From the IMG/VR virus record IMGVR_UViG_3300021512_000014: 20,818 nt of DNA. One strand, written 5' to 3'. Positions 1 through 18,852 of this stretch are shown here, in pieces; within the stretch, counting starts at the first letter, position 1; each line of letters starts with the position of its first letter. Made by a program: the position numbers and the translations under genes. Under the pieces are notes generated by a model, which had not been told where the DNA came from, did no database searches, and worked only from the letters and a program-made list of their open reading frames with translations. The DNA comes from a virus.

Positions 1-101
1 TTCTTCTGAGCTTATTGTAAAATGTAACTAATTATTAGAAAATGGGGGAAGTGAGAAAAGTGGCGTTTTTGTAGATGTGGTGCGGAAATGTTTTGTCTCA
101 T

Positions 102-157
102 GTTATGTTGCAATTTACACGAAAATTTGTCTGTTTTGAGGGTTGTTGCAACATAAC
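102..157. repeat. 12-bp perfect inverted repeat GTTATGTTGCAA / TTGCAACATAAC with a 32-bp spacer
   Basis: Arms read directly at 102-113 and 146-157. Confidence 0.85.
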
Positions 158-184
158 GTTAGACAATTTTACAAATTGAGAAAA

Positions 185-206
185 GTGTTATAAACGTTTA
201 TAACAC
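185..206. repeat. Perfect 22-bp palindrome GTGTTATAAACGTTTATAACAC
   Basis: The sequence equals its own reverse complement. Confidence 0.9.
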
Positions 207-396
207 CATTTTGTTGTTTTAGTCTAACCGTCGTTTAAAACATAGTTTTTTAAATCCAGTTTTAAACCAGTTTCGCAATTATTTTACCTAACCCCTATTC
301 AAACCATGCTTTTTAAAACCTAGTCTAAAACGCTTGCTACGCTTGAGTTTTTAGCTAGGGGAAGCACAGAGGTAGGGATGATAGAATGGGAAATTG

Positions 397-471
397 GTTC
401 GCACCTCAAAAATGAAGGTGCGAACTTAGGTGCGAACTTTAAAATGAAGGTGCGAACTTAGGTGCGAACTT
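397..471. repeat. GTGCGAAC array A: four exact AGGTGCGAACTT copies inside two identical 31-bp units, plus one inverted GTTCGCACCT
   Basis: 12-mers at 416-427, 428-439, 448-459 and 460-471; 31-bp units at 409-439 and 441-471; inverted copy at 397-406. Confidence 0.95.
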
Positions 472-500
472 ATTTGGCTACAAGCTAACCCCTTAAGAAC

Positions 501-530
501 TTTAAATTTCTTTAAATTTCTTTAAAATCT
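501..530. repeat. 10-bp tandem repeat TTTAAATTTC x2 plus one degenerate copy
   Basis: tttaaatttc tttaaatttc tttaaaatct at 501-530, overlapping the repressor stop codon. Confidence 0.7.
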
Positions 531-1205
531 TTCTTCTTTTACTCTTCTGATGATTTTTCCTATTATCTTATAGTTTTCGTTTGGCTCAATTGTTGGGTAT
601 TTAGGGTTATCGCTGGTAAGGTATGCTTTACCTTCTTTTTCTCTATAGCGTTTTAATATGAGTTCATTCCATTCATTTCTAACAATAATAATATCGCCAT
701 TTTTTATTGGCTCTGTTAATTTGTTAATTGGGAGAAAAACCACGTAATCACCGTCCTCTATAGTAGGCTCCATACTAGCGCCCCTTACTTTTATTGCTAG
801 GGAGCCTTTGGGAATATCAGGCAAGTAGAGGTAATCTATGATTTGTTCTTTATCTAAAGGTATTTCTGGGAAACCAGCAGGGACTTGAATATTTATTACC
901 GGGACCGGATGTGCAGGTATAGCTTGGGGAAATTGTTTTAAGATTTCTTCTGTGGGCATGTGTTTAAATTCTAGTTTAGTAGGTTTCATAAACATTTCTC
1001 CCTGGCCGGTGAGAAGCCAAGTAGGGTTTGCGTTTGAAGCATCGCATATGCGAACAATCTGTGCAAAACCTGGTTTTGCACTACCATCTAAGTAACGCTT
1101 AAAAGATCCTGGAGATATTTTTGCTTTTTTGGCAAGTTGAGTCCATTTCCCATCAAATCTTTTTTTAATAATCAGCCATAATCTTTCTGTAAAATTTTTT
1201 CTCAT
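522..1205 (-). CDS. cI: Prophage repressor, CI/LexA type (N-terminal HTH, C-terminal S24 peptidase), 227 aa
   Basis: HTH (WTQLAKKAKISPGSFKRYLDG...PGFAQIVRIC); Ala-Gly cleavage site in VPAGFP; catalytic Ser in VRGASMEP and Lys in LILKRY. Start moved to ATG 1205 (MRKNFTERL) because the longer ORF runs through the early promoter. Confidence 0.92.
   Translation of the reverse strand: MRKNFTERLWLIIKKRFDGKWTQLAKKAKISPGSFKRYLDGSAKPGFAQIVRICDASNANPTWLLTGQGEMFMKPTKLEFKHMPTEEILKQFPQAIPAHPVPVINIQVPAGFPEIPLDKEQIIDYLYLPDIPKGSLAIKVRGASMEPTIEDGDYVVFLPINKLTEPIKNGDIIIVRNEWNELILKRYREKEGKAYLTSDNPKYPTIEPNENYKIIGKIIRRVKEERF
1042..1053. promoter_or_regulatory. Candidate auxiliary operator: perfect palindrome TCGCATATGCGA inside the repressor gene
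   Basis: Matches the core of the promoter-embedded palindrome at 1228-1247 (TCGCATATGTGA). Confidence 0.5.
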
Positions 1206-1221
1206 TTGAGAAATTTCCCTC

Positions 1222-1250
1222 TTGACAATACTCGCATATGTGAGTATAAT
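1222..1250 (+). promoter_or_regulatory. Early promoter, consensus sigma70 TTGACA-N17-TATAAT
   Basis: TTGACA at 1222-1227 and TATAAT at 1245-1250, upstream of the early operon. Confidence 0.9.
1228..1247. promoter_or_regulatory. Operator-like 20-bp palindrome ATACTCGCATATGTGAGTAT
   Basis: One mismatched pair; fills the spacer and overlaps the -10 of the early promoter. Confidence 0.75.
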
Positions 1251-1268
1251 ACCAAGTAATTTACTACT

Positions 1269-1298
1269 ACTGTAACCGAGAGGGTGATGGAAAGTCAA
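1269..1298 (-). promoter_or_regulatory. Candidate repressor promoter TTGACT-N18-TACAGT, facing the early promoter
   Basis: Minus-strand -35 at 1298-1293 and -10 at 1274-1269; non-consensus, so tentative. Confidence 0.4.
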
Positions 1299-1718
1299 CA
1301 GTTTTTTTCGGACAAGTTGTTAGAAACACCACTTTTTAGCAGTCCTTCTTTAAATCCTGTTTCTAAAGTGAAGGCCGCTATGAGGCAAGCGATAAAAGGG
1401 TGCGGTTTGTCTAGGGAACAAATTGTAGATGAGATGAATAGATTGGCCAAGATTGAGAATATTCATGTCAAAGTTTCACTTTCTTTACTTGACAAGTGGG
1501 TGGCTCAGGAGGCGACTCACATTATTCCGTGGAAGGTATTGCCGATTTTTTGCAGGGTTACAGGGAGTATTTTACCACTTCAGGCGTTGGTGGCTCCACT
1601 TGGGGCTACGGTTATAACTGGGAAGGATCTTAAGTTGCTTGAGTGGGCAAAGGTAGAGATTAAAAGGCGTAAGTTATCACGAAAAACACGACAGTTATTA
1701 GAGGAGATAAGGATATGA
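1284..1718 (+). CDS. Early protein, probable HTH regulator (CII-like by position); alternative start at ATG 1287
   Basis: First gene after the early promoter; HTH-like segment LSREQIVDEM...VSLSLLDKWV; overlaps the next start (ATGA). Confidence 0.6.
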   Translation: MMESQQFFSDKLLETPLFSSPSLNPVSKVKAAMRQAIKGCGLSREQIVDEMNRLAKIENIHVKVSLSLLDKWVAQEATHIIPWKVLPIFCRVTGSILPLQALVAPLGATVITGKDLKLLEWAKVEIKRRKLSRKTRQLLEEIRI

Positions 1719-1903
1719 AGACTAAAAAAATAAATAAATGGCTCAAAAAGCAAGGGATTACAAAAGCACAGATAGCTAGAGAGCTTGGTATAAGCCATGT
1801 AGCGGTGGTTTTGGTGGTGCAGGGGCAAAGCACTTCCTCAAGAGTAGTCAATTGGCTTTTAGAACATGGCTGTCCTAAAGAATATTTAAAGAAGAAGAAG
1901 TAA
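1715..1903 (+). CDS. Ner/Cro-like small HTH protein
   Basis: 62 aa, GITKAQIARELGISHVAVVLVVQG; lies between repressor and transposase like Mu ner. Confidence 0.75.
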   Translation: MKTKKINKWLKKQGITKAQIARELGISHVAVVLVVQGQSTSSRVVNWLLEHGCPKEYLKKKK

Positions 1904-2179
1904 ATGGATATACGCACAGGGTTTGGGAAAGCTGATTTTATGGGGCTTGTTGGTAGGTATAAGAAATTACATAGTTTACGCAAGTTGCCTGTTTATCATC
2001 TTAATAAAGAAGTTGCTCAAAATGGTGTTTTTGGGGGTCTTTTTAATCCTAAAGAGATATTTCCAAGAGCTAGATTGGGTTGTGATGTCTTAGCATTAAT
2101 AGAATATCAAGGCAAAAAGGCTTTTTATATGTGCTCTTTAAAGAGGGCTTGGGAAATATGGGGACGGAGGCAGAGATGA
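1904..2179 (+). CDS. Hypothetical early protein, 91 aa
   Basis: Abuts the upstream stop and overlaps the transposase start (ATGA 2176-2179). Confidence 0.6.
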   Translation: MDIRTGFGKADFMGLVGRYKKLHSLRKLPVYHLNKEVAQNGVFGGLFNPKEIFPRARLGCDVLALIEYQGKKAFYMCSLKRAWEIWGRRQR

Positions 2180-4479
2180 TGGAACGGGAGATTGGTTCGC
2201 ACTTCAAAAATGAAGGTGCGAACTTTAGTGCGAACCAAAATATCAAAGTAGGAACCGAAAGTGCGAACTTTGAAGTGGTTGAAAAAGATGTTTGGCTCTA
2301 TGTAGTAGATGTAGCTAATCTTTTGGCTATAACTCCAAGAGGTGTTCAAAGAGCCTGTAAACAATCCAAATATAAAACCCGCAAAGTCAAGAAGTTTGGC
2401 GGCACAGCTTATCAAATCGCCCTTTCCTCCCTTCCACCTGAGGCCCAGGTTGTCTGGGTAAATCAAAACCCAGAGAAAGCCCGAACACTTCCTGAATACA
2501 TCAGAAACAGATTATCTTCTCAGGCACAATGGGAGATTAAAAGGCTTATGTCGCCTAAAGAGAGTGTGGGGTTAGAGATGTTTATAAAAGAAAATCTTAA
2601 AAAAAGATTAGCAACAAAAATAAAGGCTATTCAAAAGGCGCTTAGCTGCCCACCTGGGACAAAGAAATCTGAGTGGATCAGACAGGTAGCTTCTGAATTT
2701 GGAATTTCACATAAGACACTTTATCGGGATTTAAAGATATATCGTGAGAAGGGGCTCGCAGGGTTGGTTAACCCTAGAGAGAAAAAGGGTCTAGTGGCAT
2801 GGGATAAAGAGGCCATTGAGTTTATGCAGGGCGTTTATCTTAAGGCCGTCCGTGAGTGCGGACAGGTTTCAAAGCGTAGGGCGTATCAAGCAGTTATAGC
2901 AGAGGCAGAGAAAAAGGGCTGGCGAATTGGGAGTGAGAGTTCAGCTTTTGCCTACCTGCGAAGCCTAAATCCACTTTTAGCAAAGTATGCCTGTGCTGGG
3001 AGAAGAGCTTTAGATAATGTCTTTTACATTATGCGGGAATACAAGGATCTCGCTCCATTTGAAGTGAATGTGGGGGACCAGCACCGGTTTGATTTTTGGG
3101 TGCGGGATGCGGAGACAGGGAATATTTTTAGGCCTGAGTGTTATTTGTGGCTGGATTTACGGACGAGGCTAATATATGGGCTTTCTATTGCCCGGCATTA
3201 TGACCGCTATCTAATGGGTCATGCAATACGAATGGGCATGATGCGGTGGGGTATGTTTCAGAGTTGTTATACTGACAACGGCAAGCCTGAAATTAGCGAA
3301 TATGTGAATACTATAATTAATGATATTACTGCTTGGGGCAGCCAAGTTAAGGATATTGCTGAGTTATATAAGACAGATGAGGGTTATGTCATTGAAGGGC
3401 CTGACGGTGAACCTATAGAGAGCGTTTCCAGTCCTCAGATGTGGCACCGTCGTGCCCGTGCTTATAATGCGAAGGCGAAACCTATTGAGCGTTTTTTTAG
3501 GTCTTTTGAAGGTATTTTAAGAGATTTAGGGACACCGGGACTTGTGCGGGGGTTAAAGGGTGTTGCAGAGGAGAAGGCCCTTGCGGATAAACGCCTAAAG
3601 CATCTTATTGAAACCAACCAGCTCCTTACCTTTGAAGAGTTTTTGATTAATGTCTTTAAGGCGGTTGAAATCTATAACCAACGCAGACATGCGGCCTTAC
3701 GTAGGTCGCCAATAGAGGAACTTTGGCGGGCAGTAAAAAAAGAAGGTTTTGTGCCCAGATATTTGTCTGAGGCAGAGGTTGATTTTGTGCTTTTGGCACG
3801 GACTTCTCGTAAGGTTCAGCGTGGGCGTATTCTTTTAAACCATACTTGGTATCAGGGAGAAGCTTTATCAAATAACAATCTTGAGGCGGGCTTATGGCAT
3901 TTACCGGATAAAACGGAAGTTGAGATTAGATATGACCCGTTTGATCCGGCAAAGGTCATAGCGGTGCTTCCAGATGAGAGTGTCAGGAGACTTGAGCCTG
4001 TGCCTGTGTCTTCTATGAGAAACAGAAAGAAAACCAGTGAACTTATGGCTTGGAAGCGGCAGATGATACAGGCAGTTACGGAGCATTATAGACGCCTCAC
4101 CCGGCCAGTGTCTGGGATTGTTGAGTACAGCAAACGCACAAGGCAGGCTAAAGCGGCAGCCAGGCAGGCCAAACAGATTTCGCAGATTGATTTCGAGCAA
4201 ATCAAACGGGACGCAGAGCGGATGGTTAAAGAAAGTCTGGAAGATAAAAAGGTTGTGCCAATGGTGAGCAAAAGGCCGGTATTTAAGGACGAGTGGGAAT
4301 ACTATCGCTGGTGTCTAGATATGGAGCTTGCCGGGAAAAGGCTGACAGCAAAAGACAGGGCTTTTATGGCTCAATATGAGGCAAAGATGGATGAGGATGA
4401 AAGACAGTATTGGAATATACACAGACGGGTTTATGGGCAAGAAAAGCATAGAGAGAGAAAGGAGGTTGGGAGATGCTAG
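2176..4479 (+). CDS. A: Mu-type DDE transposase (MuA-like), 767 aa
   Basis: N-terminal HTHs (DVANLLAITPRGVQR; VASEFGISHKTLYRD); DDE residues in VGDQH, YTDNGK and AKAKPIERFF. Start placed at ATG 2176 (GGAGG at 2166-2170, ATGA coupling). Confidence 0.95.
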   Translation: MMEREIGSHFKNEGANFSANQNIKVGTESANFEVVEKDVWLYVVDVANLLAITPRGVQRACKQSKYKTRKVKKFGGTAYQIALSSLPPEAQVVWVNQNPEKARTLPEYIRNRLSSQAQWEIKRLMSPKESVGLEMFIKENLKKRLATKIKAIQKALSCPPGTKKSEWIRQVASEFGISHKTLYRDLKIYREKGLAGLVNPREKKGLVAWDKEAIEFMQGVYLKAVRECGQVSKRRAYQAVIAEAEKKGWRIGSESSAFAYLRSLNPLLAKYACAGRRALDNVFYIMREYKDLAPFEVNVGDQHRFDFWVRDAETGNIFRPECYLWLDLRTRLIYGLSIARHYDRYLMGHAIRMGMMRWGMFQSCYTDNGKPEISEYVNTIINDITAWGSQVKDIAELYKTDEGYVIEGPDGEPIESVSSPQMWHRRARAYNAKAKPIERFFRSFEGILRDLGTPGLVRGLKGVAEEKALADKRLKHLIETNQLLTFEEFLINVFKAVEIYNQRRHAALRRSPIEELWRAVKKEGFVPRYLSEAEVDFVLLARTSRKVQRGRILLNHTWYQGEALSNNNLEAGLWHLPDKTEVEIRYDPFDPAKVIAVLPDESVRRLEPVPVSSMRNRKKTSELMAWKRQMIQAVTEHYRRLTRPVSGIVEYSKRTRQAKAAARQAKQISQIDFEQIKRDAERMVKESLEDKKVVPMVSKRPVFKDEWEYYRWCLDMELAGKRLTAKDRAFMAQYEAKMDEDERQYWNIHRRVYGQEKHRERKEVGRC
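2195..2270. repeat. GTGCGAAC array B inside the transposase 5' end
   Basis: Inverted GTTCGCAC at 2195-2202; direct GTGCGAAC at 2216, 2228 and 2261; degenerate GTAGGAAC at 2248. Confidence 0.9.
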
Positions 4480-5348
4480 GTTTAAAAGAAGTTATGAAGA
4501 AGCTCAATTTAAGTGCTAGTGATGTTGCACAGATCACTGGCTATGCCAGAAGCACTATCAGTCAAATAAAAAATAATAAATATGGTGGCGACGGTCAAGT
4601 AGAAGCGGAAATTTTAGAAAAGCTGCGGGAAGCTGGCTATGTCCTACAGGAGGCGAAGTTGCGGGTGAAGAACGATGTTTTTGTAAAAACAGCTAATGTC
4701 AAGCGGTTTGATGACTTATGTGATGAGTTGGTAGCACCACAAGGAGACCTCACCTCTTCTATTGGTGTAGTAATGGGACGGGCAGGCCGTGGGAAGACAA
4801 AGGCTGCCAGACATTATGCGGTGCAGCATTCAGAGGCGGTGTATGTGCTTTTTATAGACGGTTTTAGCCTAGTGGATGTAGCACGGGAGATTGCTTTTGA
4901 GATTGGCGGCATCAGGCCACGCACTTTCAGGGCATGTCTAGATGTGATTGACGAGGCCACTCTTCAGCAAAGGCGGCTCATTATTATAGATGAAGCAGAT
5001 AAAATGCCTAAAAGGTATTTTGAGATGCTACGGGGGTTAAACGAAAGATGTGCTTGCCCAATAGTTTTGGTTGGCGAAGAGCCTTTAAGAAAGGCACTTG
5101 ATAGTGAGAGAAGGCTAAAAAGCAGAGTGAGGCAAATGGTAGTGTTTGAGCCAGTGTTGCTCACGGATATAGCTGCCTATTATCAGGCGGCAATTGGTAT
5201 TACGGTTAATAGTGATGTGCTTCAGGTTTTATGGCAGAGATCACAGGGCGATTTTCGGCTTGTGGTTAGGGATGCGTTCTCAGTAGTGCGGATTATGAAT
5301 ACTAACAGGCTTTCAGCAGTAACAATGGATGTGGTGAAGGGAATATGA
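4473..5348 (+). CDS. B: MuB-like AAA+ transposition ATPase with N-terminal HTH
   Basis: Walker A GRAGRGKT, Walker B LIIIDEAD, HTH LSASDVAQITGYARSTISQI; directly follows the transposase. Confidence 0.95.
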   Translation: MLGLKEVMKKLNLSASDVAQITGYARSTISQIKNNKYGGDGQVEAEILEKLREAGYVLQEAKLRVKNDVFVKTANVKRFDDLCDELVAPQGDLTSSIGVVMGRAGRGKTKAARHYAVQHSEAVYVLFIDGFSLVDVAREIAFEIGGIRPRTFRACLDVIDEATLQQRRLIIIDEADKMPKRYFEMLRGLNERCACPIVLVGEEPLRKALDSERRLKSRVRQMVVFEPVLLTDIAAYYQAAIGITVNSDVLQVLWQRSQGDFRLVVRDAFSVVRIMNTNRLSAVTMDVVKGI

Positions 5349-5776
5349 AGGGAGCGGCTAAAAAAATCAGAAAGCTTTTGAAGATAGTCAGGGTCTGGCC
5401 AGGTGGGAGATTTAAGGAGCTTGGCGAGGCGGCGGGAGTGGATAGGCAGAGCGCAAAGGACACGGTGCGGGATTTTTTGCAGCGTGGGGAGTTAGTGGTT
5501 GAAAATGGGATGTATCGGTATCGGGATAGGCCTGAAAATAAGGTAATAGATAAAATCTGGCGGGCGTGGCGGTATTGTCCGCAGTGGACAGTAAATGAGA
5601 TTGCACAGCTTGTGGAAACAAATAGAGAAACGGTGAAGGCATATGTGAGGCTTTATTGCCGAGCAGGCTATGTGGAGAAGATTGGTAGAAAAAAGACGCA
5701 GTTTGGCTATGAGGCGGTTTATCGGCTTAAAGACAGAAATTTAAAGGAGAGGCCATGTATAGGCAAAAGATGTTAG
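5345..5776 (+). CDS. Hypothetical protein with two winged-HTH-like segments
   Basis: RFKELGEAAGVDRQSAKDTVRDFLQRGEL and WTVNEIAQLVETNRETVKAYVRLYCRAGYV; ATGA overlap with B. Confidence 0.65.
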   Translation: MKGAAKKIRKLLKIVRVWPGGRFKELGEAAGVDRQSAKDTVRDFLQRGELVVENGMYRYRDRPENKVIDKIWRAWRYCPQWTVNEIAQLVETNRETVKAYVRLYCRAGYVEKIGRKKTQFGYEAVYRLKDRNLKERPCIGKRC

Positions 5777-6249
5777 CCAAGATTCATATTGCCGCAAATC
5801 AGGCAAGAATCTGCACAAACAGTAATTGTAGACGGCTTTGCTTTGAAGGGGTTTGTCCTAGTTGTGGGGCAGAAACAAGGCAAATGAGCGAGATGGATTA
5901 TAGAAGGTTTCTTTTAAACTGCACAGGAGTTTCTAGCTGCGGATATATGAATAGAGAACAGCTACAGCGAGTTATTAAGATTTTTGAGCTAGCGGGATTT
6001 GTGTTTAAAAAGCGGGGCACTTTACAGGAAGCGATGAATGATAGCCGTTTGGCGATGGTGACAAAAATAGAGGCAGAGGCAGAGAGGTATTTAGGAGAGA
6101 ATTGGAAGGCCAGGATTAGAGGGTATTGCAGGAAGGTTTTTAATAAGGATGATCTGCGTTTCTTAACTTTTAAAGAGTTAAGGCACATTTGGGGATTTAT
6201 GCGGAGACAGCAAAAAAAGGGAGGTAAGGTGATTTATGCGGCTTTCTAA
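5755..6249 (+). CDS. gemA: GemA/gp16-like protein (DUF1018-like) with a Cys-rich insertion
   Basis: LAKIHIA N-terminal motif and LL..TG..S...M...L.RV...F...GF pattern; SD AAGGAGAGG. Confidence 0.75.
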   Translation: MYRQKMLAKIHIAANQARICTNSNCRRLCFEGVCPSCGAETRQMSEMDYRRFLLNCTGVSSCGYMNREQLQRVIKIFELAGFVFKKRGTLQEAMNDSRLAMVTKIEAEAERYLGENWKARIRGYCRKVFNKDDLRFLTFKELRHIWGFMRRQQKKGGKVIYAAF

Positions 6250-9017: not shown

Positions 9018-9277
9018 CAAATTACATTAAAAGGAGCGTTATGCCTTTTAATTTTTTTATTAAAACAATTAGAAAAGAAGTAGAGCAGCTTCCACATTTT
9101 TTAACACTCAAACAGGTTGCTCATTTTTTGCAAGTTGACTACTTCACCATCTATCGCTTAGTGGTGATAGGCGAAATTGATGCCACAAAAGTGGCAGGCC
9201 GCTGGAGAGTCCCTCGCTCATCTTTATTAGAGTATCTTGAGAGAAGGCATCCGTTCAACTGGGAAGACTCTTTTTAG
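9014..9277 (+). CDS. Excisionase/MerR-like HTH DNA-binding protein, candidate late regulator (alternative start ATG 9041)
   Basis: FLTLKQVAHFLQVDYFTIYRLVVIGEIDATKVAGRWRVPRSSL is a classic HTH_17-type pattern; last gene before the lysis genes. Confidence 0.8.
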   Translation: MTNYIKRSVMPFNFFIKTIRKEVEQLPHFLTLKQVAHFLQVDYFTIYRLVVIGEIDATKVAGRWRVPRSSLLEYLERRHPFNWEDSF

Positions 9278-9291
9278 CAGATTTTACACAC
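9269..9291 (+). promoter_or_regulatory. Late-promoter candidate element, copy 1: TCTTTTTAGCAGATTTTACACAC
   Basis: Exact 23-bp match to 16191-16213; 35 bp upstream of the endolysin ATG. Confidence 0.7.
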
Positions 9292-10964: not shown

Positions 10965-11483
10965 ATGTCAAGACGTTCGAAAGTAGATATATATGGACTG
11001 GTTGAGCAGGTGCTTGCACTGTATGAGGAAGGCAAGACCATTGCAGAGATTGAGCAGATTTTACGCAGTGAAGGCTATGATATTAGCAGGGAGAGCATCA
11101 GGCGACGCATTAAATCGGCCAAAGAGGTGGCTAATATATATAAAAGGAGCCTGGAAGAGGCAAAGGTTCTTTTAGAGACGGTTAGAGATAATCCCAATAC
11201 AGATGTAGTTGAGGTAACCAATTCACTTCTGGCGCATAAGCTTTTTGAGTTTGCTAAGTCAGTTGAAGAACTTGATTTTGATAATCCTATGGCATTTGTC
11301 AAAGCAGTTAATCAACTTTCTGAAGCACAGGTGCGAGTGGCAAAGTTACGGCTTGATTATCAAAAGGGTTTTGAGGCAGCAAAAAAGGAGATTATGCAAG
11401 CTGTAGCAAAAGAGATAGAGAAGTACCCCGATTTAAAGGCACGACTTTTAGAGATTATCCAAAATGTTGAGATTCAGAAATGA
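10965..11483 (+). CDS. terS: Putative terminase small subunit (Mu gp27/DUF3486-like)
   Basis: MSRRSKVD start, HTH-like KTIAEIEQILRSEGYDISRESIRR; directly upstream of terL. Confidence 0.8.
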   Translation: MSRRSKVDIYGLVEQVLALYEEGKTIAEIEQILRSEGYDISRESIRRRIKSAKEVANIYKRSLEEAKVLLETVRDNPNTDVVEVTNSLLAHKLFEFAKSVEELDFDNPMAFVKAVNQLSEAQVRVAKLRLDYQKGFEAAKKEIMQAVAKEIEKYPDLKARLLEIIQNVEIQK

Positions 11484-12988
11484 TTATCAAAGACCTCATC
11501 GGCCCGACCGATCCAGAGAAAGAAGCCCGCATCAAACGGGCAACTCAAGATTTTGCCTATTTTTGCCAGTATTATCTTAAAGAAGCTTTTCCTATCCCCT
11601 TTGCAGAATATCAAAAGATTATCATAGACATTATTAATAAACAGGCCATTACAGAGGTAGATGTAAAATCTCTTAAAAAATTTATTAAAAAAGACAGGCA
11701 TATTTACCTTAAAGTTTCAGAAAAACTTGAAGGTATTTTAGATTTAGAACCCCGGGATCATGGCAAAACTACTCGTATGTCTCAAGCGTTACCACTGTGG
11801 TTGGTGCTGACAAGAGCAGGGGTTTTCCCTGTTGTAGTTGGAGTATCAAGGGAAAGCGCTACTAATTTTATAGAGAGCATCAAGCTTGAGCTTGAGAATA
11901 ATGATAGAATTTTAGAGGATTTCGGTGATTTAAAAGGGCGTACCTGGAAGAAAAATAAAATCACACTCAAAAACGGCAATGCTATTGCGGCAGTTGGAGC
12001 AAATGAAGGAATAAGGGGCATCAAAGACAAATATAGAAGACCAACACACATAATCTGTGATGACTTACTGAAAGACAAAGATGTGGAAAGTCGTAGTTTG
12101 AGGGAGTCGCTTTATAGATGGTTTAAGCGGGTCATAATGAATTTAGGTAAAGGGGCACTTATTATTGTAGTTAATACAATTATGCATCCGGATGACCTGC
12201 CCAGCCGTCTTTTAAAAGAGATAAAAGGTGGCAAATTGAAAAATTGGGTGGGTTTTAGGTTTTCAGCTACTACCCCTGAGGGTAAACCTCTATGGCCACA
12301 GCGATGGAGTTTGCGAGATTTAGCAAAGAAAAAAGAGGAATTAGGCGTATCTATTTATGCTACAGAATGGGAAAATGAACCGATAGCTGAGGAGGAGAAG
12401 AAATTTAAGAAAGAGTGGTTTCGTTATTTTGAGCTTGAGGATGTGAATTTGCGAAATTTGGTAAAAGTGATGGCGGTTGATCCGGCCACAGGTAAAGAGA
12501 CAGGGGATTATTCGGCAATTGTTGTGGTGGGATTGAGTGAGCGTGGCATGTTATATGTGCTAGATGCGGAGGGAGCGAAAATATCGGATTTAACGTTAAT
12601 AGATAGGATTATTACTAAATACATACTCTGGCGGCCAGGCAAAATTATGTTTGAAGACCAAAGTTTTCAAGAAATTTACAGGAATCAGCTTTTACGAGAA
12701 GCCTTAAAACAAAATGTCATTTTGCCTGTGATAGGGGTTAAACAAACAAGCAACAAAAAATTCAGAATTAGTAAGCTTTCACCGCTTATTGAGGCAGGTA
12801 TTGTTTTATTCAGAAAAGAGCAGACTTTACTTTTGACACAACTAGAGAACTTTCCAAAAGACCACGATGATTTGCCAGATGCTTTGGAGATGGCGGTTTC
12901 AGCCCTTATTAGTGCTGGAAGTGGGCCAGTAGAGTATGAAACGGTGGCAAGGCGCAGATATAGAAACAAAAGGGGAGGTATTTGGTAA
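11480..12988 (+). CDS. terL: Terminase large subunit
   Basis: Walker A PRDHGKTT, Walker B IICDD, nuclease motifs VDPA..DYSA and HDDLPDA. Confidence 0.95.
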   Translation: MIIKDLIGPTDPEKEARIKRATQDFAYFCQYYLKEAFPIPFAEYQKIIIDIINKQAITEVDVKSLKKFIKKDRHIYLKVSEKLEGILDLEPRDHGKTTRMSQALPLWLVLTRAGVFPVVVGVSRESATNFIESIKLELENNDRILEDFGDLKGRTWKKNKITLKNGNAIAAVGANEGIRGIKDKYRRPTHIICDDLLKDKDVESRSLRESLYRWFKRVIMNLGKGALIIVVNTIMHPDDLPSRLLKEIKGGKLKNWVGFRFSATTPEGKPLWPQRWSLRDLAKKKEELGVSIYATEWENEPIAEEEKKFKKEWFRYFELEDVNLRNLVKVMAVDPATGKETGDYSAIVVVGLSERGMLYVLDAEGAKISDLTLIDRIITKYILWRPGKIMFEDQSFQEIYRNQLLREALKQNVILPVIGVKQTSNKKFRISKLSPLIEAGIVLFRKEQTLLLTQLENFPKDHDDLPDALEMAVSALISAGSGPVEYETVARRRYRNKRGGIW

Positions 12989-14529
12989 TGGCCAATAATA
13001 TTATTATTTATGACCAATTTGGACGGCCGGTCAATACACAGGGGTTAAGGCCAGAAAAAAGGGAGCTGGCTGTAACTTCAATAAGGGACCGTTGGTCCAG
13101 TTATCCAAGTAGTGGACTAACACCTGAAAAGCTGGCACGCATTTTTAGAGAGGCCGATGCGGGCTATATCTTGAGACAGGCGGAGCTTTTTGAAGAGGTG
13201 TTAGAGAAAGATGGGCATATTTTAAGCGAAATTTCCAAAAGAGAAAATGCCCTTTCTACTCTTGATTATGAGATTGAACCTTTTAGTGAAGAGAAAAGAG
13301 ATATTGAGGTGGCAGAGTTTGTCAAAAATGTAATTGAGAAGCAAGTTGATCTGGATGAAGTGATAGAAGCCTTAAAGACGGCCGTGCCCCGTGGTTTTGC
13401 TAGTGCGGAGGTTATTTGGGATGTTTCAGAAGGACAAGCTGTGCCAAAAGAGGTTAAGTTTGTTGAACAAAAAAGGTTTGTGTGGCCGTGGGACGAACCA
13501 TATCCCCGGCTTATTACCGAAGATGCCCCAAATGGTATAGAAATACCGCCTTTTAAGTTCTTGTTCCATAAGTATAAGCCCTTATCAGGGCATCCTAACA
13601 GGGCACCAATTTTGCGGGTGTGCTGCTGGATGTTTCTTTTTAAGCATTATTCAATAAAGGATTGGGTGGCATTTAGCGAAGTTTATGGGATGCCTTTGCG
13701 ACTTGGCAAGTATGATCCGACCGCTACAGAACCAGCCAAAGAGGCACTTAAACAGGCTATCCAGCAGCTTGGCAGTGATGCCGCAGGCATCATATCAAAA
13801 GACACAGAGATTGAATTTGTGGAAGCGATCAAACAGGCCACAGTGGATGTGTATGATAGATTGGTTAAATTATCTAATACCGAGGTTTCAAAGGCAGTTT
13901 TGGGGCAAACTTTGAGTGTTGAGGTGGGCGATAGAGGCAGCTATGCTGCCGCTAAAGTGCATAATGAAGTAAGGCTTGACCTTTTGAGTGCAGATGCGAC
14001 AGCGATGGCCAAGACAATTAGAAAACAACTTTTTCTACCTCTAGTGGGATGGAATTTTGGCTTTGATACACCCGTTCCATATATTGGGTTTGTGGTAAAG
14101 AAGCCAGAAGATAAAGAGAGAGAAGCAAAAACGGTCAGCACTCTTTTTAAAGATGTAGGTGTGCCGATGAGTAAAAGCTGGATTTATGGCAAGTTTAATA
14201 TCCCACCGCCAAAAGATGAAGAAGATACGCTTGTGCCTTTACAGATGCCTAAAGTGCTTAAGGCAAAGACAAAGAATTTAAAGCAATATACTGCTGAACA
14301 GCAAAGTATTGAGGGGTTGGTTGAAAGAGCGGTTGACTTAGCCAATCAGCAAATGGGCACTTTTTTAGACCCGATTGTAAAGATTGTGCTTGAAAGCAAA
14401 AGTTATGAGGAAATGGAAGAGAAGATTATGACGACTTTTAGTGAGATTTATACGCCAGCAGAATTGCAGGAATTACTTGCCAGGGCCATGTTTATGGCGG
14501 ATTTATTTGGAAGGTTTTCAGCAAAGTAA
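12988..14529 (+). CDS. Portal protein (Mu gp29/DUF935-like)
   Basis: YGMP.R.GKY, SKAVLGQTL, SYAAAKVHNEVR.DL motifs; start placed at the TAATG overlap (12988). Confidence 0.93.
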   Translation: MANNIIIYDQFGRPVNTQGLRPEKRELAVTSIRDRWSSYPSSGLTPEKLARIFREADAGYILRQAELFEEVLEKDGHILSEISKRENALSTLDYEIEPFSEEKRDIEVAEFVKNVIEKQVDLDEVIEALKTAVPRGFASAEVIWDVSEGQAVPKEVKFVEQKRFVWPWDEPYPRLITEDAPNGIEIPPFKFLFHKYKPLSGHPNRAPILRVCCWMFLFKHYSIKDWVAFSEVYGMPLRLGKYDPTATEPAKEALKQAIQQLGSDAAGIISKDTEIEFVEAIKQATVDVYDRLVKLSNTEVSKAVLGQTLSVEVGDRGSYAAAKVHNEVRLDLLSADATAMAKTIRKQLFLPLVGWNFGFDTPVPYIGFVVKKPEDKEREAKTVSTLFKDVGVPMSKSWIYGKFNIPPPKDEEDTLVPLQMPKVLKAKTKNLKQYTAEQQSIEGLVERAVDLANQQMGTFLDPIVKIVLESKSYEEMEEKIMTTFSEIYTPAELQELLARAMFMADLFGRFSAK

Positions 14530-14532
14530 AAC

Positions 14533-15942
14533 ATGCTTAAATTAGAACCCTTGCCTCCGGAAGAAGCAATTAAGTTTTTTGAGCAAAAAGGACTTGTTCT
14601 CTCTGAAAGATGGGATGAGATTTGGCAAGAGATGCACGCAAAGGCCTTTACTGTGGCTGGTGTGATGAGGCTTGATGTGTTGGCTGATATTTATGAACAA
14701 ATACAAAAGGCCATTGCCAAAGGGACAACGCTGGCAAATTTTAAAAAAGATTTTGAAGAGATAATGAAAAGACGGGGCTGGTATGACCCTAAGTTTAAAA
14801 GGCCCTGGAGGCTGGAGACAATTTTTAGGACAAATGTGCAAACAGCATATCAAGCAGGTAGGTATAAACAGCAAAAAGAAATGGCAGATATAAGACCATA
14901 TTGGATGTATGATGCGGTCAATGACAGCCGCACAAGACCAAGTCATGCGGCAATGGATGGCAAGGTATTTAGGGCGGATGACCCGATTTGGGAAACCTGG
15001 TATCCACCAAATGGATTTAACTGCCGCTGTAGGGTGGTGAGCCTTTCTAAAAGGCAGGTTCAGAGCAGAGGGCTTCAAATAAGCGAGGGAAAGGGAGTAA
15101 AGGTTAAACCAGATCAGGGATTTGAGTATAATCCGGGGAAGGTAATTTTTGAGTTAGATATAGAGAAATATAGAAAAAAATATAAAGACCTTTTTAAAAT
15201 AAATCCTGAAATTTTTAAACCACCACAAAAAATTCCCCAGGCGATTTCTGAATTAAAGGATTTCCTAAATGAGAGACTTAATCTTAATATCCGGGAAATA
15301 AAAACAGTGAGGAGCAAACGCTATTTTATGGCTTGCACACGAGATAATGAAATAAGAATCAGCAATATAACTTTCTATGATTATAATAATTTTTGCCCCA
15401 ATAAGGATTTAAAGAATGCTTTAAAGAAAATGAGAAAGGGTGCTCCCCTTACTTTTAACGAAGAATATTCACTTGAGTCATTATGGCATGAGATATTGCA
15501 TAGCTGCCAAAGCATAAGAGACAAGTTTTTATTACCTGAAAAAGACACACTTATTATGGAAACCTTCCATCAATGGCGGGCAAGGCTAACTTATGGGGAA
15601 CTTTTACAGGCTTTTGGTTATACTCCTAGATTCGCAACAAAAACCTTAAATGAAGGCTATGGATATGACTGGTTGGTTAAAAAAAACCGCTGGCTTTTTA
15701 AGCGTCTTAAGTTAGATGCCAGGCCTCTTTTAAAATTGTCAAAAAGAGGCACTTTAATAAAATCTTCTGATGTAGAGAGTTATATGAGTGAAAAGTTAAA
15801 TATTGATTCGTTAGATTCTAAAATGAAATTGAGAGATATGATGTATGATGCTACACGCTGGGAGGTATCTGAAGAAGAATTCAAAAAGAAATGGGAACCT
15901 TTTATCAATTTTCTTCTAAAAAAACGTCAAAGTGGGCATTAG
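14533..15942 (+). CDS. MuF (gpF/gp30-like) minor head protein with a C-terminal HExxH metallopeptidase-like extension
   Basis: MuF motifs AFTVAG, RLETIFRTNVQTAY.AGR, RTRPSH and PPNGFNCRC.V, ending at GFEYNPGK (~aa 203); then ~265 extra aa containing HEILH (aa 319-323) and E343. Confidence 0.9.
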   Translation: MLKLEPLPPEEAIKFFEQKGLVLSERWDEIWQEMHAKAFTVAGVMRLDVLADIYEQIQKAIAKGTTLANFKKDFEEIMKRRGWYDPKFKRPWRLETIFRTNVQTAYQAGRYKQQKEMADIRPYWMYDAVNDSRTRPSHAAMDGKVFRADDPIWETWYPPNGFNCRCRVVSLSKRQVQSRGLQISEGKGVKVKPDQGFEYNPGKVIFELDIEKYRKKYKDLFKINPEIFKPPQKIPQAISELKDFLNERLNLNIREIKTVRSKRYFMACTRDNEIRISNITFYDYNNFCPNKDLKNALKKMRKGAPLTFNEEYSLESLWHEILHSCQSIRDKFLLPEKDTLIMETFHQWRARLTYGELLQAFGYTPRFATKTLNEGYGYDWLVKKNRWLFKRLKLDARPLLKLSKRGTLIKSSDVESYMSEKLNIDSLDSKMKLRDMMYDATRWEVSEEEFKKKWEPFINFLLKKRQSGH

Positions 15943-16147
15943 CAATATACCGATCCCAAGTTAAACCCATTTTTTTTAGATACTCTTTTGCTTTCTCGTC
16001 TTGCCCACGTAGATAATATAAATCAACAATGTGGGCATAATGAGGGGGAGGACCTAAGCGTTTTTCAATTTCTTCTTTTTTTAACTCACCAAAAAGCTTT
16101 TCAATCTCTTTTTTGCTAGGGTTATGTTCCCAAAAACTCTCCTGCAT
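15905..16147 (-). CDS. 80-aa antisense protein, candidate immunity protein for the MuF extension
   Basis: Only minus-strand gene in the late region with its own promoter; occupies the MuF-protease gap and overlaps the MuF 3' end by 38 bp; helical, TPR-like HIVDLYYLRGQDEKAKEYLKKM. Confidence 0.7.
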   Translation of the reverse strand: MQESFWEHNPSKKEIEKLFGELKKEEIEKRLGPPPHYAHIVDLYYLRGQDEKAKEYLKKMGLTWDRYIANAHFDVFLEEN

Positions 16148-16153
16148 ATTTCT

Positions 16154-16182
16154 ATATTAATGATTTTTAGTAAGGCTGTCAA
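16154..16182 (-). promoter_or_regulatory. Sigma70-like promoter TTGACA-N17-TAATAT, 6 nt upstream of ATG 16147 (leaderless geometry)
   Basis: Minus-strand -35 at 16182-16177 and -10 at 16159-16154, then AGAAAT and ATG; no SD. Confidence 0.75.
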
Positions 16183-16190
16183 CCGCCAAT

Positions 16191-16213
16191 TCTTTTTAGC
16201 AGATTTTACACAC
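16191..16213 (+). promoter_or_regulatory. Late-promoter candidate element, copy 2
   Basis: Exact 23-bp match to 9269-9291; 47 bp upstream of the protease ATG. Confidence 0.7.
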
Positions 16214-16260: not shown

Positions 16261-17547
16261 ATGCCTATTGTTTTAAATCAGGCCGGCTATCGGCATGCTT
16301 TAAGCCTTATTAGACAAGGGAAGGTAAATAAAAAAGATGCCTGGAGCTTTTCTGCTGATGATGGCAATGCCTTACTGGGAGACCCACCTAAATATGATGT
16401 TTATAAAAAGTGGTTTTTAGGTCATGACACAGATGCCAATCCTGAAACTAAAGAGGCTTGGAAGTATCCATTTGGGAAAAACGGGAATGTATATAGAAGT
16501 GGGCTAATTGCTATTAGGCAAAGAGCTGCGCAACAAGGAGAGAGGGATATTTTTGAAGCGGCAGGCAGGCTCTTAGAGCTAGTTGATGCAAAGAAGCAGA
16601 CTGCAAAGGCCCTTGCCTTTAAAGCAGAAAACGATGTGCCAACAGATATTTTGCTTTTGCCCTTTGGAGAGGTGGAAACAACTAAGGGTAAATATGTAGT
16701 TGATGAGAAAGCAGCGGCTTTGGTTTTGTCTATTTTTAAAGAGATTGGGAATGATATTGTGATTGATTATGAGCATCAAACATTAAAGGATGTACAAGCA
16801 CCTGCGGCGGGCTGGATTAAGGATTTATATGTAGGGGAAGATGGCGTTCATGCAAAAGTTGAATGGACAGAAAGGGCAAAACAATATATTGCTAACAAAG
16901 AATATCGCTATTTTTCACCTGTAGTCTATGTTGATGAGGAGAGTGGACGGGCGATTTATATCCAGACGGTGGCCTTAACCAATCTTCCTGCCACCATGAA
17001 TGCAAAGCCTTTAATAAATAAACAAAAAGAGGAGGAAGCTATGAAAAAAATTTTGGAAATCCTGGGGGTATCGTCAGAAGACGAGGCATTAAAGGCTATT
17101 AAGGCCTATAAACAAAAGAAAGACGCTATTCCTAAAGAGATCCTGGAGCTGCTTGAGTTAAAAGAAGATGCTGGTATTTCTGAGGTGAAAGCATCCATTT
17201 TGGCATTTAAGCAGGGCATGAAGACAAGTAATGATTTGGCAAAAGAAGTCAAGGAGTTAAAAGAAAAACTTTTGGCAAAAGAAACTGAAGAGATAGTAGA
17301 GATGGCTTTAAAAAAGGGCAAGATTACACCTGCCCAGAAAGAGTGGGCCTTAGACTATGCCAGAAAGGACATTGAAGGGTTTAAGGTATATGTCCAGAAG
17401 GCACCTCAAATAGTGCCTGTTGGTGATGGCATAGCTAAACCAGTTAAGCAGAATGTAGATGGCCTTGATGATGCAACCATTATGATTGCCAAGCAGATGG
17501 AAATAAGTGTTGATGATATAAAAAAATATGCCTTAAAGGAGGGATAA
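16261..17547 (+). CDS. I: Prohead protease/scaffold (Mu gpI-like) with an extra N-terminal domain
   Basis: IVIDYEHQ, APAAGWI, VEWTERA...EYRYFSPV and ALTN.PA motifs; SD GGGGG. Confidence 0.92.
   Translation: MPIVLNQAGYRHALSLIRQGKVNKKDAWSFSADDGNALLGDPPKYDVYKKWFLGHDTDANPETKEAWKYPFGKNGNVYRSGLIAIRQRAAQQGERDIFEAAGRLLELVDAKKQTAKALAFKAENDVPTDILLLPFGEVETTKGKYVVDEKAAALVLSIFKEIGNDIVIDYEHQTLKDVQAPAAGWIKDLYVGEDGVHAKVEWTERAKQYIANKEYRYFSPVVYVDEESGRAIYIQTVALTNLPATMNAKPLINKQKEEEAMKKILEILGVSSEDEALKAIKAYKQKKDAIPKEILELLELKEDAGISEVKASILAFKQGMKTSNDLAKEVKELKEKLLAKETEEIVEMALKKGKITPAQKEWALDYARKDIEGFKVYVQKAPQIVPVGDGIAKPVKQNVDGLDDATIMIAKQMEISVDDIKKYALKEG
17041..17547 (+). CDS. Nested in-frame scaffolding protein (Mu gpZ-like), 168 aa
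   Basis: AGGAGG at 17030-17035, 5 nt before an in-frame ATG (MKKILEILG), right after the protease domain; coiled-coil composition. Confidence 0.7.
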   Translation: MKKILEILGVSSEDEALKAIKAYKQKKDAIPKEILELLELKEDAGISEVKASILAFKQGMKTSNDLAKEVKELKEKLLAKETEEIVEMALKKGKITPAQKEWALDYARKDIEGFKVYVQKAPQIVPVGDGIAKPVKQNVDGLDDATIMIAKQMEISVDDIKKYALKEG

Positions 17548-17976: not shown

Positions 17977-18852
17977 ATGATTATAAATCAGCAAACATTA
18001 CAAGGCATTTATGTAAATTTTAAGACCATTTTTAATCAGCAGCTTGAAATTACAAAAACTTTTTGGGAACAGGTGGCAACCAGGGTGCCATCTACAACAA
18101 AAAGTAATGATTACAAATGGTTGGGGGCACTGCCTACACTGAGAGAATGGATTGGTGAAAGGCAGGTTAAGAATCTTTCGGCATTTTCTTATGAAGTTGT
18201 AAATAAGCCTTTTGAGGCAACTGTAGCGGTTGATCGAGATGATATTGAAGATGATAACATTGGCGTTTACAAACCAATTATTCAACAGCTGGCTAGTGCG
18301 GCCAAACAGCATCCAGATGAACTTGTTTTTACTTTGCTGAAAGAAGGGTTTAGCAGGAAGTGTTTTGATGGGAAGTCTTTTTTTAATGACAGCCATAAAA
18401 TTGGCAAGACTACTTATAGCAACATACAGACTGGAAGTGGAGCGGCTTGGTTTCTGCTTGATACCACCAAGCCAGTGAAACCATTGATTATGCAGTTTAG
18501 ACGGCAACCGGAGTTTGTGGCCCTTGATAGACCTACAGATTCAAATGTCTTTTTGCGAAAAGAATTTCTCTATGGCGTGGATTACAGAGGTAATGCTGGC
18601 TATGGCTTTTGGATGCAGGCATTTGGCAGTAAGGCAACATTGGATGAGACTAATTTTAAGGCAGCAAGAAAGGCAATGGAAAGTATTAAAAATGAACATG
18701 GCGTGCCCTTAAGAATTACACCAAATCTGATGGTAGTGGGGCCTTCTAATAGAGAAGCAGCTGAAACCTTGCTTCATAGCCGGGAGATAAACGGTTCTAC
18801 TAACGTGCTGTATAAGGCAGTGGACCTTTTAGTAGTGCCATACCTTGATTAA
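17977..18852 (+). CDS. T: Major capsid protein (Mu gpT-like)
   Basis: YKWLGALP.LREWIGER, FEATVAVDRDDIEDD.IG.Y.P, HPDELVF.LL and PLI.Q.R..P.F motifs. Confidence 0.95.
   Translation: MIINQQTLQGIYVNFKTIFNQQLEITKTFWEQVATRVPSTTKSNDYKWLGALPTLREWIGERQVKNLSAFSYEVVNKPFEATVAVDRDDIEDDNIGVYKPIIQQLASAAKQHPDELVFTLLKEGFSRKCFDGKSFFNDSHKIGKTTYSNIQTGSGAAWFLLDTTKPVKPLIMQFRRQPEFVALDRPTDSNVFLRKEFLYGVDYRGNAGYGFWMQAFGSKATLDETNFKAARKAMESIKNEHGVPLRITPNLMVVGPSNREAAETLLHSREINGSTNVLYKAVDLLVVPYLD

Follow-up and report, generated by a model that had tools for sequence, protein, structure and literature searches.

The 20,818-nucleotide (nt) viral record IMGVR_UViG_3300021512_000014 of IMG/VR (hereafter the window, meaning the whole stretch of DNA that was analysed) encodes on its plus strand a MuF minor head protein of 469 amino acids (aa) that ends in a gluzincin-like domain and, on its minus strand, a convergent gene whose 80-aa helical product is called here the partner. 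The explanation that we prefer, with a probability of about 0.55, is that the virion delivers the MuF-peptidase and that the small protein encoded by the convergent gene blocks it. Comparison with related loci suggests that the partner is probably the inhibitor or immunity protein of the protease. The features concerned are the following (bp, base pairs; ORF, open reading frame).

14533-15942, plus strand: MuF minor head protein with a C-terminal gluzincin-like domain, 469 aa (ORF, Pfam, PHROG, TIGR01641)
14533-15141, plus strand: MuF (virion-targeting) module, aa 1-203 (Phage_Mu_F, phrog_220, TIGR01641)
15235-15939, plus strand: zincin-like domain, aa 235-469, with a conserved core at about aa 258-403
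15487-15501, plus strand: HEILH motif (H319, E320, H323), near-invariant in the family, on helix 105-121 of the domain model
15559-15561, plus strand: E343, candidate third zinc ligand, kept in the family, on helix 133-157 of the domain model
15905-16147, minus strand: 80-aa helical partner protein, candidate inhibitor or immunity protein (ORF, family alignment, leave-out profile)
16154-16182, minus strand: sigma-70-type promoter of the partner gene, TTGACA-17-TAATAT (10/12 match)
16191-16213, plus strand: 23-bp exact repeat, late-promoter-like, at the operon boundary (second copy at 9269-9291)
16261-17547, plus strand: Mu gpI-like head protease/scaffold, which opens the next late operon (Pfam Mu-like_Pro, E 5e-72; phrog_328)

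This layout agrees with the original prediction, which had been made from the sequence of the window. The MuF part does end near aa 203 (the last residue of GFEYNPGK is aa 203 and the translation from nt 15142 opens at V204), HEILH occupies aa 319-323 (nt 15487-15501) and E343 (nt 15559-15561) lies 20 residues past H323. The small minus-strand ORF (15905-16147) overlaps the 3' end of the MuF gene by 38 bp (15905-15942), and the promoter proposed for it is found where it had been placed, at a position that is conserved across homologous loci.

The N-terminal module matches Pfam Phage_Mu_F (PF04233) on aa 52-168 (E 4e-31, 108.4 bits versus a curated cut-off of 29.6) and the protein matches TIGR01641 (76.2 bits versus a curated cut-off of 39.65); phrog_220, 'minor head protein and DNA pilot', covers aa 4-261. 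The gene starts at 14533, directly behind the end of the portal gene (14529) in the head module, and its MuF module is 36–48% identical to the MuF of Mu-like phages from Pseudomonas, Ralstonia, Burkholderia and E. coli that carry other C-termini. MuF proteins in general, such as SPP1 gp7 and Mu F, are packaged in the capsid and ejected with the DNA. By analogy, the MuF-peptidase would be packaged and ejected in the same way, and such capsid carriage and ejection have been proposed for MuF fusions (PMC3482391, PMC5512222, PMC5576092).

The C-terminal domain is a member of a large family: when 1.84 billion representative proteins were searched exhaustively with HMMER, relatives in 291 representative clusters were retrieved (E<=1e-3). 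Most of them carry the domain at the C-terminus of proteins of 450–650 aa; some reach 880–950 aa and some are short, many of the short ones being probably fragments. Phage_Mu_F is present in 44 of the 102 relatives that were scanned with Pfam, the sole other domains being inteins. In three of the proteins of 880–950 aa (P0027, P0032 and P0059), the inteins (Hint_2, Intein_splicing) sit where the MuF domain ends and precede the peptidase domain. That the Hint/intein domains might be toxin-releasing modules was rejected because they interrupt the MuF domain itself, like mobile inteins.

A single HExxH motif, like a single promoter match, means little on its own and it is the comparison with relatives that settles the matter. 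Among the aligned family members, H319 is conserved in 149/149, E320 and H323 each in 148/149 and E343 in 148/148; HExxH is also invariant in alignment A6. Other conserved residues of the domain are E311, Y312, E315, W318, Q347, R351, Y354, G375 and Y378, together with GYGY. The spacing from H323 to E343 is that from H146 to E166 among the ligands of thermolysin. At the level of sequence, the presence of HExxH and E343 with thermolysin spacing is therefore firmly established, and the domain would be expected to act as a peptidase.

The AlphaFold2 model of the domain (predicted local distance difference test score, pLDDT, 90.7; predicted template modelling score, pTM, 0.87) comprises a three-stranded sheet followed by helices, with HExxH predicted on helix 105-121 and E343 on the next long helix (133-157). 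In a VIA scan of 48,161 chains, the first 11 matches were all zincin metalloenzyme domains (Z 7.0–5.4, 135–190 residues aligned); they consist of ten gluzincin peptidases (M1 aminopeptidases, DPP III, LTA4H) and ArdC and span approximately model residues 20-260. A zincin-type fold is probable on the basis of this model. Searches of Pfam, NCBIfam and PDB sequences, by single sequence and by profile, returned nothing relevant for aa 204-469, the weak old-yellow-enzyme and designed-protein rows being noise, and no peptidase family of Pfam (Tox-MPTase, MPTase-PolyVal, Peptidase_M78 and others) matched this region even at E<=10. Peptidase_M78 is found in 18% of the members of an ESM-Atlas neighbour cluster (rank 24), which is a lead only. 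Three diverse members of the protease family had no match among 50,697 deposited phage genomes, and it is because of this lack of family matches among deposited genomes that the domain is still unnamed.

The 80-aa ORF encodes a real protein, as indicated by a family consensus that opens at the initiator methionine, by a leave-out profile match (E 5e-11), by a confident model (pLDDT 90.3) and by a ratio of non-synonymous to synonymous substitution rates (dN/dS) of 0.16. The consensus starts with METIFDxNPT..EL and has L..LF..RGD...A..Y at its centre; three residues, E14, L43 and R47 (window numbering), do not vary and the extreme N-terminus is the most conserved part. Family members share these motifs although they are only 14–28% identical to the window protein. 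A profile built from 43 other partners, the window protein being left out, retrieves the 80-aa ORF as its sole match among the 192 six-frame ORFs of the window. The possibilities of a chance ORF and of an artefact antisense to the MuF C-terminus were rejected, given the overlap of only 38 bp, the protein-level family, the dN/dS and the existence of copies remote from any protease gene. The AlphaFold2 model consists of six short helices and its fold search gave no match above Z 3.9, the ESM Atlas being uninformative. Searches with family members found no such family in Pfam or PHROGs; DUF4810 remained below its cut-off on the 80-aa protein (20.8 versus 34.7 bits), tetratricopeptide repeat (TPR) matches were weak and limited to single members, and Pfam and fold searches detected no DNA-binding fold. 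A search of protein clusters with the partner profile yielded 116 clusters, annotated as 'hypothetical protein' where named, apart from one UniRef record called 'tetratricopeptide repeat protein'.

A word-based search with the 80-aa protein found only three close clusters: the same phage (L007), a 90%-identical frameshifted relative (L006) and a 78%-identical copy without surrounding phage (L001-L005). In L006 (1900-3512), the MuF-peptidase gene is in three pieces and the small gene in two. This locus was rejected as an independent case of a split MuF, as it belongs to the same phage lineage (90% identity) and has frameshifts in both genes, which are likely sequencing errors of that assembly and not decay.

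The pairing of the two genes was examined in 105 loci picked by the protease domain alone (80 viral contigs and 25 loci from species-representative genomes). When the 80-aa protein was compared by tblastn with the 80 viral contigs, weak matches appeared in many of them just 3' of the protease gene and on the opposite strand. ORF calling revealed a minus-strand ORF of 70–100 aa that abuts the protease stop codon in almost every locus and occupies the 250–390-bp gap ahead of the next plus-strand gene. With the partner profile, a gene of the partner family was found directly 3' of the protease gene in 101/105 loci. It is convergent in 98 of these 101, the 3' ends typically meeting within -4 to +38 nt. 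Two loci (L013 and L117) have a partner co-oriented with the protease gene and, in a third (L062, 2870-4828), MuF, peptidase and partner are fused in frame in one open frame of 653 codons; this fusion may result from a lost stop codon or from an assembly error. Of the four misses, three occur where the contig stops at the protease gene; the fourth, L106, has a convergent open frame of 123 codons (stop to stop) in which the central motif is recognisable but divergent. In Crenothrix, the source of one of the three truncated contigs, the partner is found on a different contig, at its end and next to a protease fragment.

The paired loci span Desulfobacterota, Bacteroidota, Fibrobacterota, Methylococcales, Competibacteraceae, Nitrospirota and others. 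The co-occurrence of homologues of both genes, which the original prediction had put forward as a check, is thus found in several phyla with a near-constant convergent layout. Four Mu-like phages whose MuF module is 38–44% identical but which have another C-terminus served as controls: neither profile matches them even at E<=10 and they carry a co-oriented gene G (gpG) at the position of the partner. Distances between partners correlate with those between protease domains (Spearman rho 0.41, partial 0.36) and less with those between MuF modules (rho 0.23, partial 0.09). This pattern fits a cassette whose two genes would move and evolve together, but close linkage alone could give the same pattern.

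The partner gene appears to have its own transcription signals. Its promoter (TTGACA-17-TAATAT, 16182-16154) matches the consensus at 10/12 positions and has the joint-best score in a scan of 3 kilobases (kb), in which 7 promoter-like sites were found versus 7.4 expected. Only 6 nt separate the -10 box from the ATG and there is no Shine-Dalgarno sequence; therefore, the transcript is predicted to be leaderless or nearly so. Among 66 non-redundant partner upstream regions, TTGAC starts at -35, -36 or -37 from the ATG in 18, about 0.2 being expected by chance for three fixed positions (a rough estimate). A further 12/66 carry the Bacteroidota -7 element TAnnTTTG at -12 to -16 and only 7/66 a Shine-Dalgarno motif. 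These comparisons suggest that the partner gene has, in several phyla, its own housekeeping-type promoter set against the start codon. The lambda cI gene expressed from PRM is a lysogen-expressed gene with a leaderless transcript. In its promoter geometry only, the partner gene would resemble cI, as its promoter is set against the start codon, lacks a Shine-Dalgarno sequence and is directed against lytic operons. Unlike cI, the partner is no DNA-binding repressor, a separate CI/LexA-like repressor being encoded at 522-1298.

This promoter lies back to back with an exact 23-bp repeat, TCTTTTTAGCAGATTTTACACAC, at 16191-16213 upstream of gene I; the other exact copy (9269-9291) is upstream of the lysis/head operon and a looser third copy is found at 11050-11067. 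The repeat is kept in orphan loci L001-L003. It looks like a late-promoter or activator site. In phage Mu, separate late promoters precede the lysis genes and gene I. By analogy, the small gene would sit at the boundary of two late operons and point against the first. It could be proposed that the opposite-strand element acts mainly as RNA, convergent or antisense transcription damping read-through of the lysis/head operon or insulating it from the gene-I operon, with the open frame being secondary. In its favour, the two genes abut or overlap at their 3' ends in nearly all loci, the promoter is directed into the late operon from the boundary that the 23-bp repeat marks and a terminator-like hairpin is found on the minus strand (15450-15435). 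Such a role is nonetheless most improbable, as conservation is at the protein level (shared motifs at 14–28% identity, dN/dS 0.16), the predicted fold of the partner is confident and the protein persists in the co-oriented, fused and orphan versions, in which the antisense geometry is absent.

Partner genes also occur without the protease gene. Six-frame translations of 301 genomes from one class and 401 from another were searched with the partner profile, and the first set also with the protease profile. The clear partner matches found in this way, independently of the protease, are one paired copy (L128, in G136) and three orphans. One orphan (L122) lies beside an AlpA-type regulator and an apparent restriction-enzyme (HsdR) fragment, another (L123) beside a tyrosine integrase, a tRNA fragment and an XRE regulator and the third (L137) among small genes of no known family. 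Behind the orphan partner of L137 (1477-2325) come two small ORFs in the same orientation (90 and 93 aa), neither of which belongs to a known family; judged from this arrangement, the locus could be a poly-immunity array.

Another orphan is the copy in L001-L005, which is separated by about 350 bp from a tRNA-Arg gene. It is homologous to nt 16369 to 15926 of the window: the shared stretch includes the initial 109 nt of gene I, continues through the intergenic region, where both promoters lie, and an intact small gene, and breaks off 16 nt inside the MuF 3' end. These loci (e.g. L002, 501-974) thus hold a 440-bp remnant of the phage lineage, about 100 bp from tRNA-Arg(TCT) and in a non-phage context, which is either a prophage deleted down to one gene worth keeping or a mobile cassette. 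The orphan and the window gene differ by 17 synonymous and 17 non-synonymous changes over 40 and 179 sites, respectively (dN/dS 0.16); therefore, the orphan partner protein has been kept under selection without the protease.

No protease without a partner was seen in the 105 loci, the misses being the three contig ends and the divergent ORF of L106. A protease that is never alone and a partner that is sometimes alone form an asymmetry that favours a toxin and its immunity protein, as far as gene content can tell. The original prediction had held that homologues of the small ORF independent of the C-terminal domain would speak against it, and such orphans do exist. Orphan occurrence is, however, a poor test of an immunity function, because orphan immunity genes are normal in polymorphic toxin systems (PMC11699363).

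Orphans and linkage also bear on a rather doubtful alternative, in which the two genes are functionally paired but the partner is not an inhibitor: it would serve as an activator, as a subunit that confers specificity or acts as adaptor, as a chaperone for folding or packaging the MuF-peptidase, or as a regulator, of lysogeny or of late expression, required by these phages for some other purpose. Near-obligate linkage shows dependence and not its direction, and orphan copies could reflect an independent function. In shape, the partner resembles a small helical hairpin of the TPR type, as is common among adaptors (weak TPR, DUF4810 and helical-repeat rows), and the in-frame fusion of L062 is easier to understand for a subunit than for an antidote. 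Conversely, an assembly chaperone or subunit would be expected inside the late operon, yet 98/101 partners are convergent with their own promoter; an activator or subunit would be of no obvious use alone in an integrase/tRNA island, where dN/dS is 0.16; and the lack of a detected DNA-binding fold speaks against a regulator.

It is possible, as a further alternative, that the injected MuF-peptidase is needed for productive infection, for example by destroying a host defence or control protein, and that the partner is a superinfection-exclusion and anti-phage defence factor. If so, prophages would shut out related phages by leaderless expression of the partner and bacteria would keep orphans in integrative islands for defence. 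Matches of single partner-family members to 'superinfection exclusion' families (PF17420, E 0.002; phrog_1510, E 0.007) are too weak for use.

A role of the peptidase in morphogenesis or self-processing is unlikely. The enzyme would trim MuF, the portal or head proteins in the procapsid, or free itself, and the partner would keep it latent until assembly. The location of the gene in the head module, between the portal gene and gpI, is consistent with this, as is a weak match to phrog_595, 'head maturation protease', on aa 51-285; zincin domains of phage polyvalent proteins have also been proposed, in the part of PMC5512222 that deals with them, to process their own carriers. However, a Mu gpI-type head protease/scaffold is already encoded, related Mu-like phages build their heads with a MuF that lacks the domain and this two-domain protein has no further cargo to release. 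Moreover, orphan partners in bacterial islands and a lysogen-type promoter misfit a purely morphogenetic role.

Taken as a whole, and returning to a virion-delivered peptidase blocked by its partner, the following model can be drawn. The MuF module would place the peptidase in the capsid at the portal, from where it would leave with the DNA. In the cytoplasm of the infected cell, it would act as a zinc metallopeptidase of the gluzincin type. The partner, a small cytoplasmic helical protein, would bind and block the peptidase; its conserved N-terminus might plug the active-site cleft, as do the N-termini of some metalloprotease inhibitors, which is a pure conjecture. Transcribed as a leaderless mRNA from its own constitutive-type promoter, it could be produced during lysogeny, when late genes are not expressed. 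Lysogens would thereby be shielded from the peptidase that sibling or related virions bring in and the enzyme would stay harmless in the producing cell, and an orphan copy would protect the bacteria that keep it alone. We infer physical binding, inhibition and any toxicity.

Several points weigh against this model. The original prediction had expected a zincin fold for the C-terminal part. The confident model and its best matches, which are gluzincin catalytic domains, agree with it, but the structural matches are middling (Z<=7) and, as the tool warns, a Z under 8 may reflect a common arrangement; Foldseek gave nothing significant against PDB and BFVD (E<=1e-3), although its weak rows are also zincins. 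The domain has no match to any known toxin or peptidase model of Pfam. It is found almost only with MuF, so that the shared-pool hallmark of polymorphic toxins appears to be missing: among 102 relatives, no module of type V, VI or VII secretion systems (T5SS, T6SS, T7SS) and no Rhs module accompanies it, in a non-exhaustive search and with short stand-alone forms in existence. Expression of the partner in the lysogen is suggested by promoter motifs and geometry only, and co-transcription would be the simpler arrangement for an inhibitor that serves the producing cell alone. The fused version and the two co-oriented ones indicate that the convergent layout is not essential. Lastly, among the partner genes found independently of the protease, orphans (4 locus types) outnumber paired copies (1), although the numbers are small, and the partner could have a function of its own. 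The architecture, the motif, the pairing and the promoter position that were originally proposed stand, but the word 'toxin' goes beyond the evidence, an effector of counter-defence or host takeover fitting equally well.

The window is a Mu-like transposable prophage. This assignment, like the identity of MuF, follows from the joint presence of a repressor, transposases A and B, Gam, terminase, portal, MuF, gpI and the major head protein. Besides the elements given above, it includes the following.

522-1298, minus strand: CI/LexA-like repressor
Within the window: genes for a Ner-like regulator, transposases A and B, and Gam
11480-12988: terminase
12982-14529: Mu-type portal (Portal_Mu)
17977-18852: major head protein

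At its N-terminus, the gpI protease/scaffold is extended by a module of about 115 aa (16261-16600, aa 1-114) that matches phrog_34096 and lies outside the Mu-like_Pro region. The nearest of the genomes compared (G001; about 0.8 megabases, 99% complete) includes a 6.2-kb contig (C32; L091, L092) that is 90% identical to positions 32-6108 of the window, the part encoding the repressor and transposases A and B. The contig is explained either by a very small genome harbouring a Mu-like transposable prophage or by the misbinning of a phage contig.

MuF polymorphic toxins, or phage-delivered effectors, have been described (PMC3482391, Zhang et al. 2012; PMC5576092, Jamet et al. 2017; PMC11699363). 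Two of these toxins, Apk2 and Bxa, each have a small binding protein, encoded next to them, that neutralises them (PMC11699363). In a survey, a small ORF was found behind 89% of the MuF toxin genes and a metallopeptidase domain in 20% of the MuF toxins (PMC5576092). The present system shares with them a MuF head module with a variable enzymatic C-terminus, a temperate phage and a small adjacent gene for a candidate binding immunity protein. It differs from them in a domain without a toxin or peptidase match in Pfam and found almost only with MuF, in an unnamed partner family, in a partner that is convergent in 98/101 loci with its own promoter of a predicted leaderless type and in the occurrence of orphans. 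These orphans are reminiscent of the immunity genes of polymorphic toxin systems, copies of which are kept without the cognate toxin.

A second group to be compared is that of the polyvalent-protein zincins (MPTase-PolyVal; Iyer et al. 2017, PMC5512222), which, in the portion of that paper devoted to them, are likewise HExxH zincins in proteins predicted to be packaged and injected, with a MuF anchor. Unlike these giant, multi-domain proteins, the one studied here is a simple two-domain protein in which polyprotein processing would have little substrate; MPTase-PolyVal gives no hmmscan match to it even at E<=10, and the same portion of PMC5512222 notes no dedicated small partner gene. As for the gluzincins (thermolysin M4, M1 aminopeptidases, DPP III, minigluzincins), the modelled domain shares with them the HExxH helix, the Glu at +20 on the next helix and a small beta-sheet ahead. 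Unlike them, it is compact (about 170–230 aa), has conserved residues of its own and shows no detectable sequence relationship to them, and its structural matches to them reach only Z 5–7.

What is already known is thus the association of a MuF-effector fusion with a small adjacent immunity gene, as well as metallopeptidase C-termini as a class (PMC5576092). The protease family, the partner family, the near-universal convergent layout with an independent, leaderless-type promoter and the orphans in islands appear to be new: no published description of any of them was found, with the proviso that a literature search cannot prove absence.

Although MuF-fused effectors are widespread, the characterised ones number only two, a (p)ppApp synthetase and an ADP-ribosyltransferase. 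The present work defines a large unannotated family of protease-type MuF effectors together with a family of partners. Both need profile models, as their members are now called 'hypothetical protein' or, for the small gene, not called at all; the natural fusion of L062 offers a ready single chain for predicting the structure of the complex. The orphans in islands suggest a principle of defence, the neutralisation of an ejected phage enzyme, that is not described in the literature searched. Finally, the layout of the partner gene, convergent, with its own leaderless-type promoter and at the boundary of late operons, hints at when the partner is made and leads to a testable idea, namely that lysogens may be immunised against the proteins injected by their own kind of phage.

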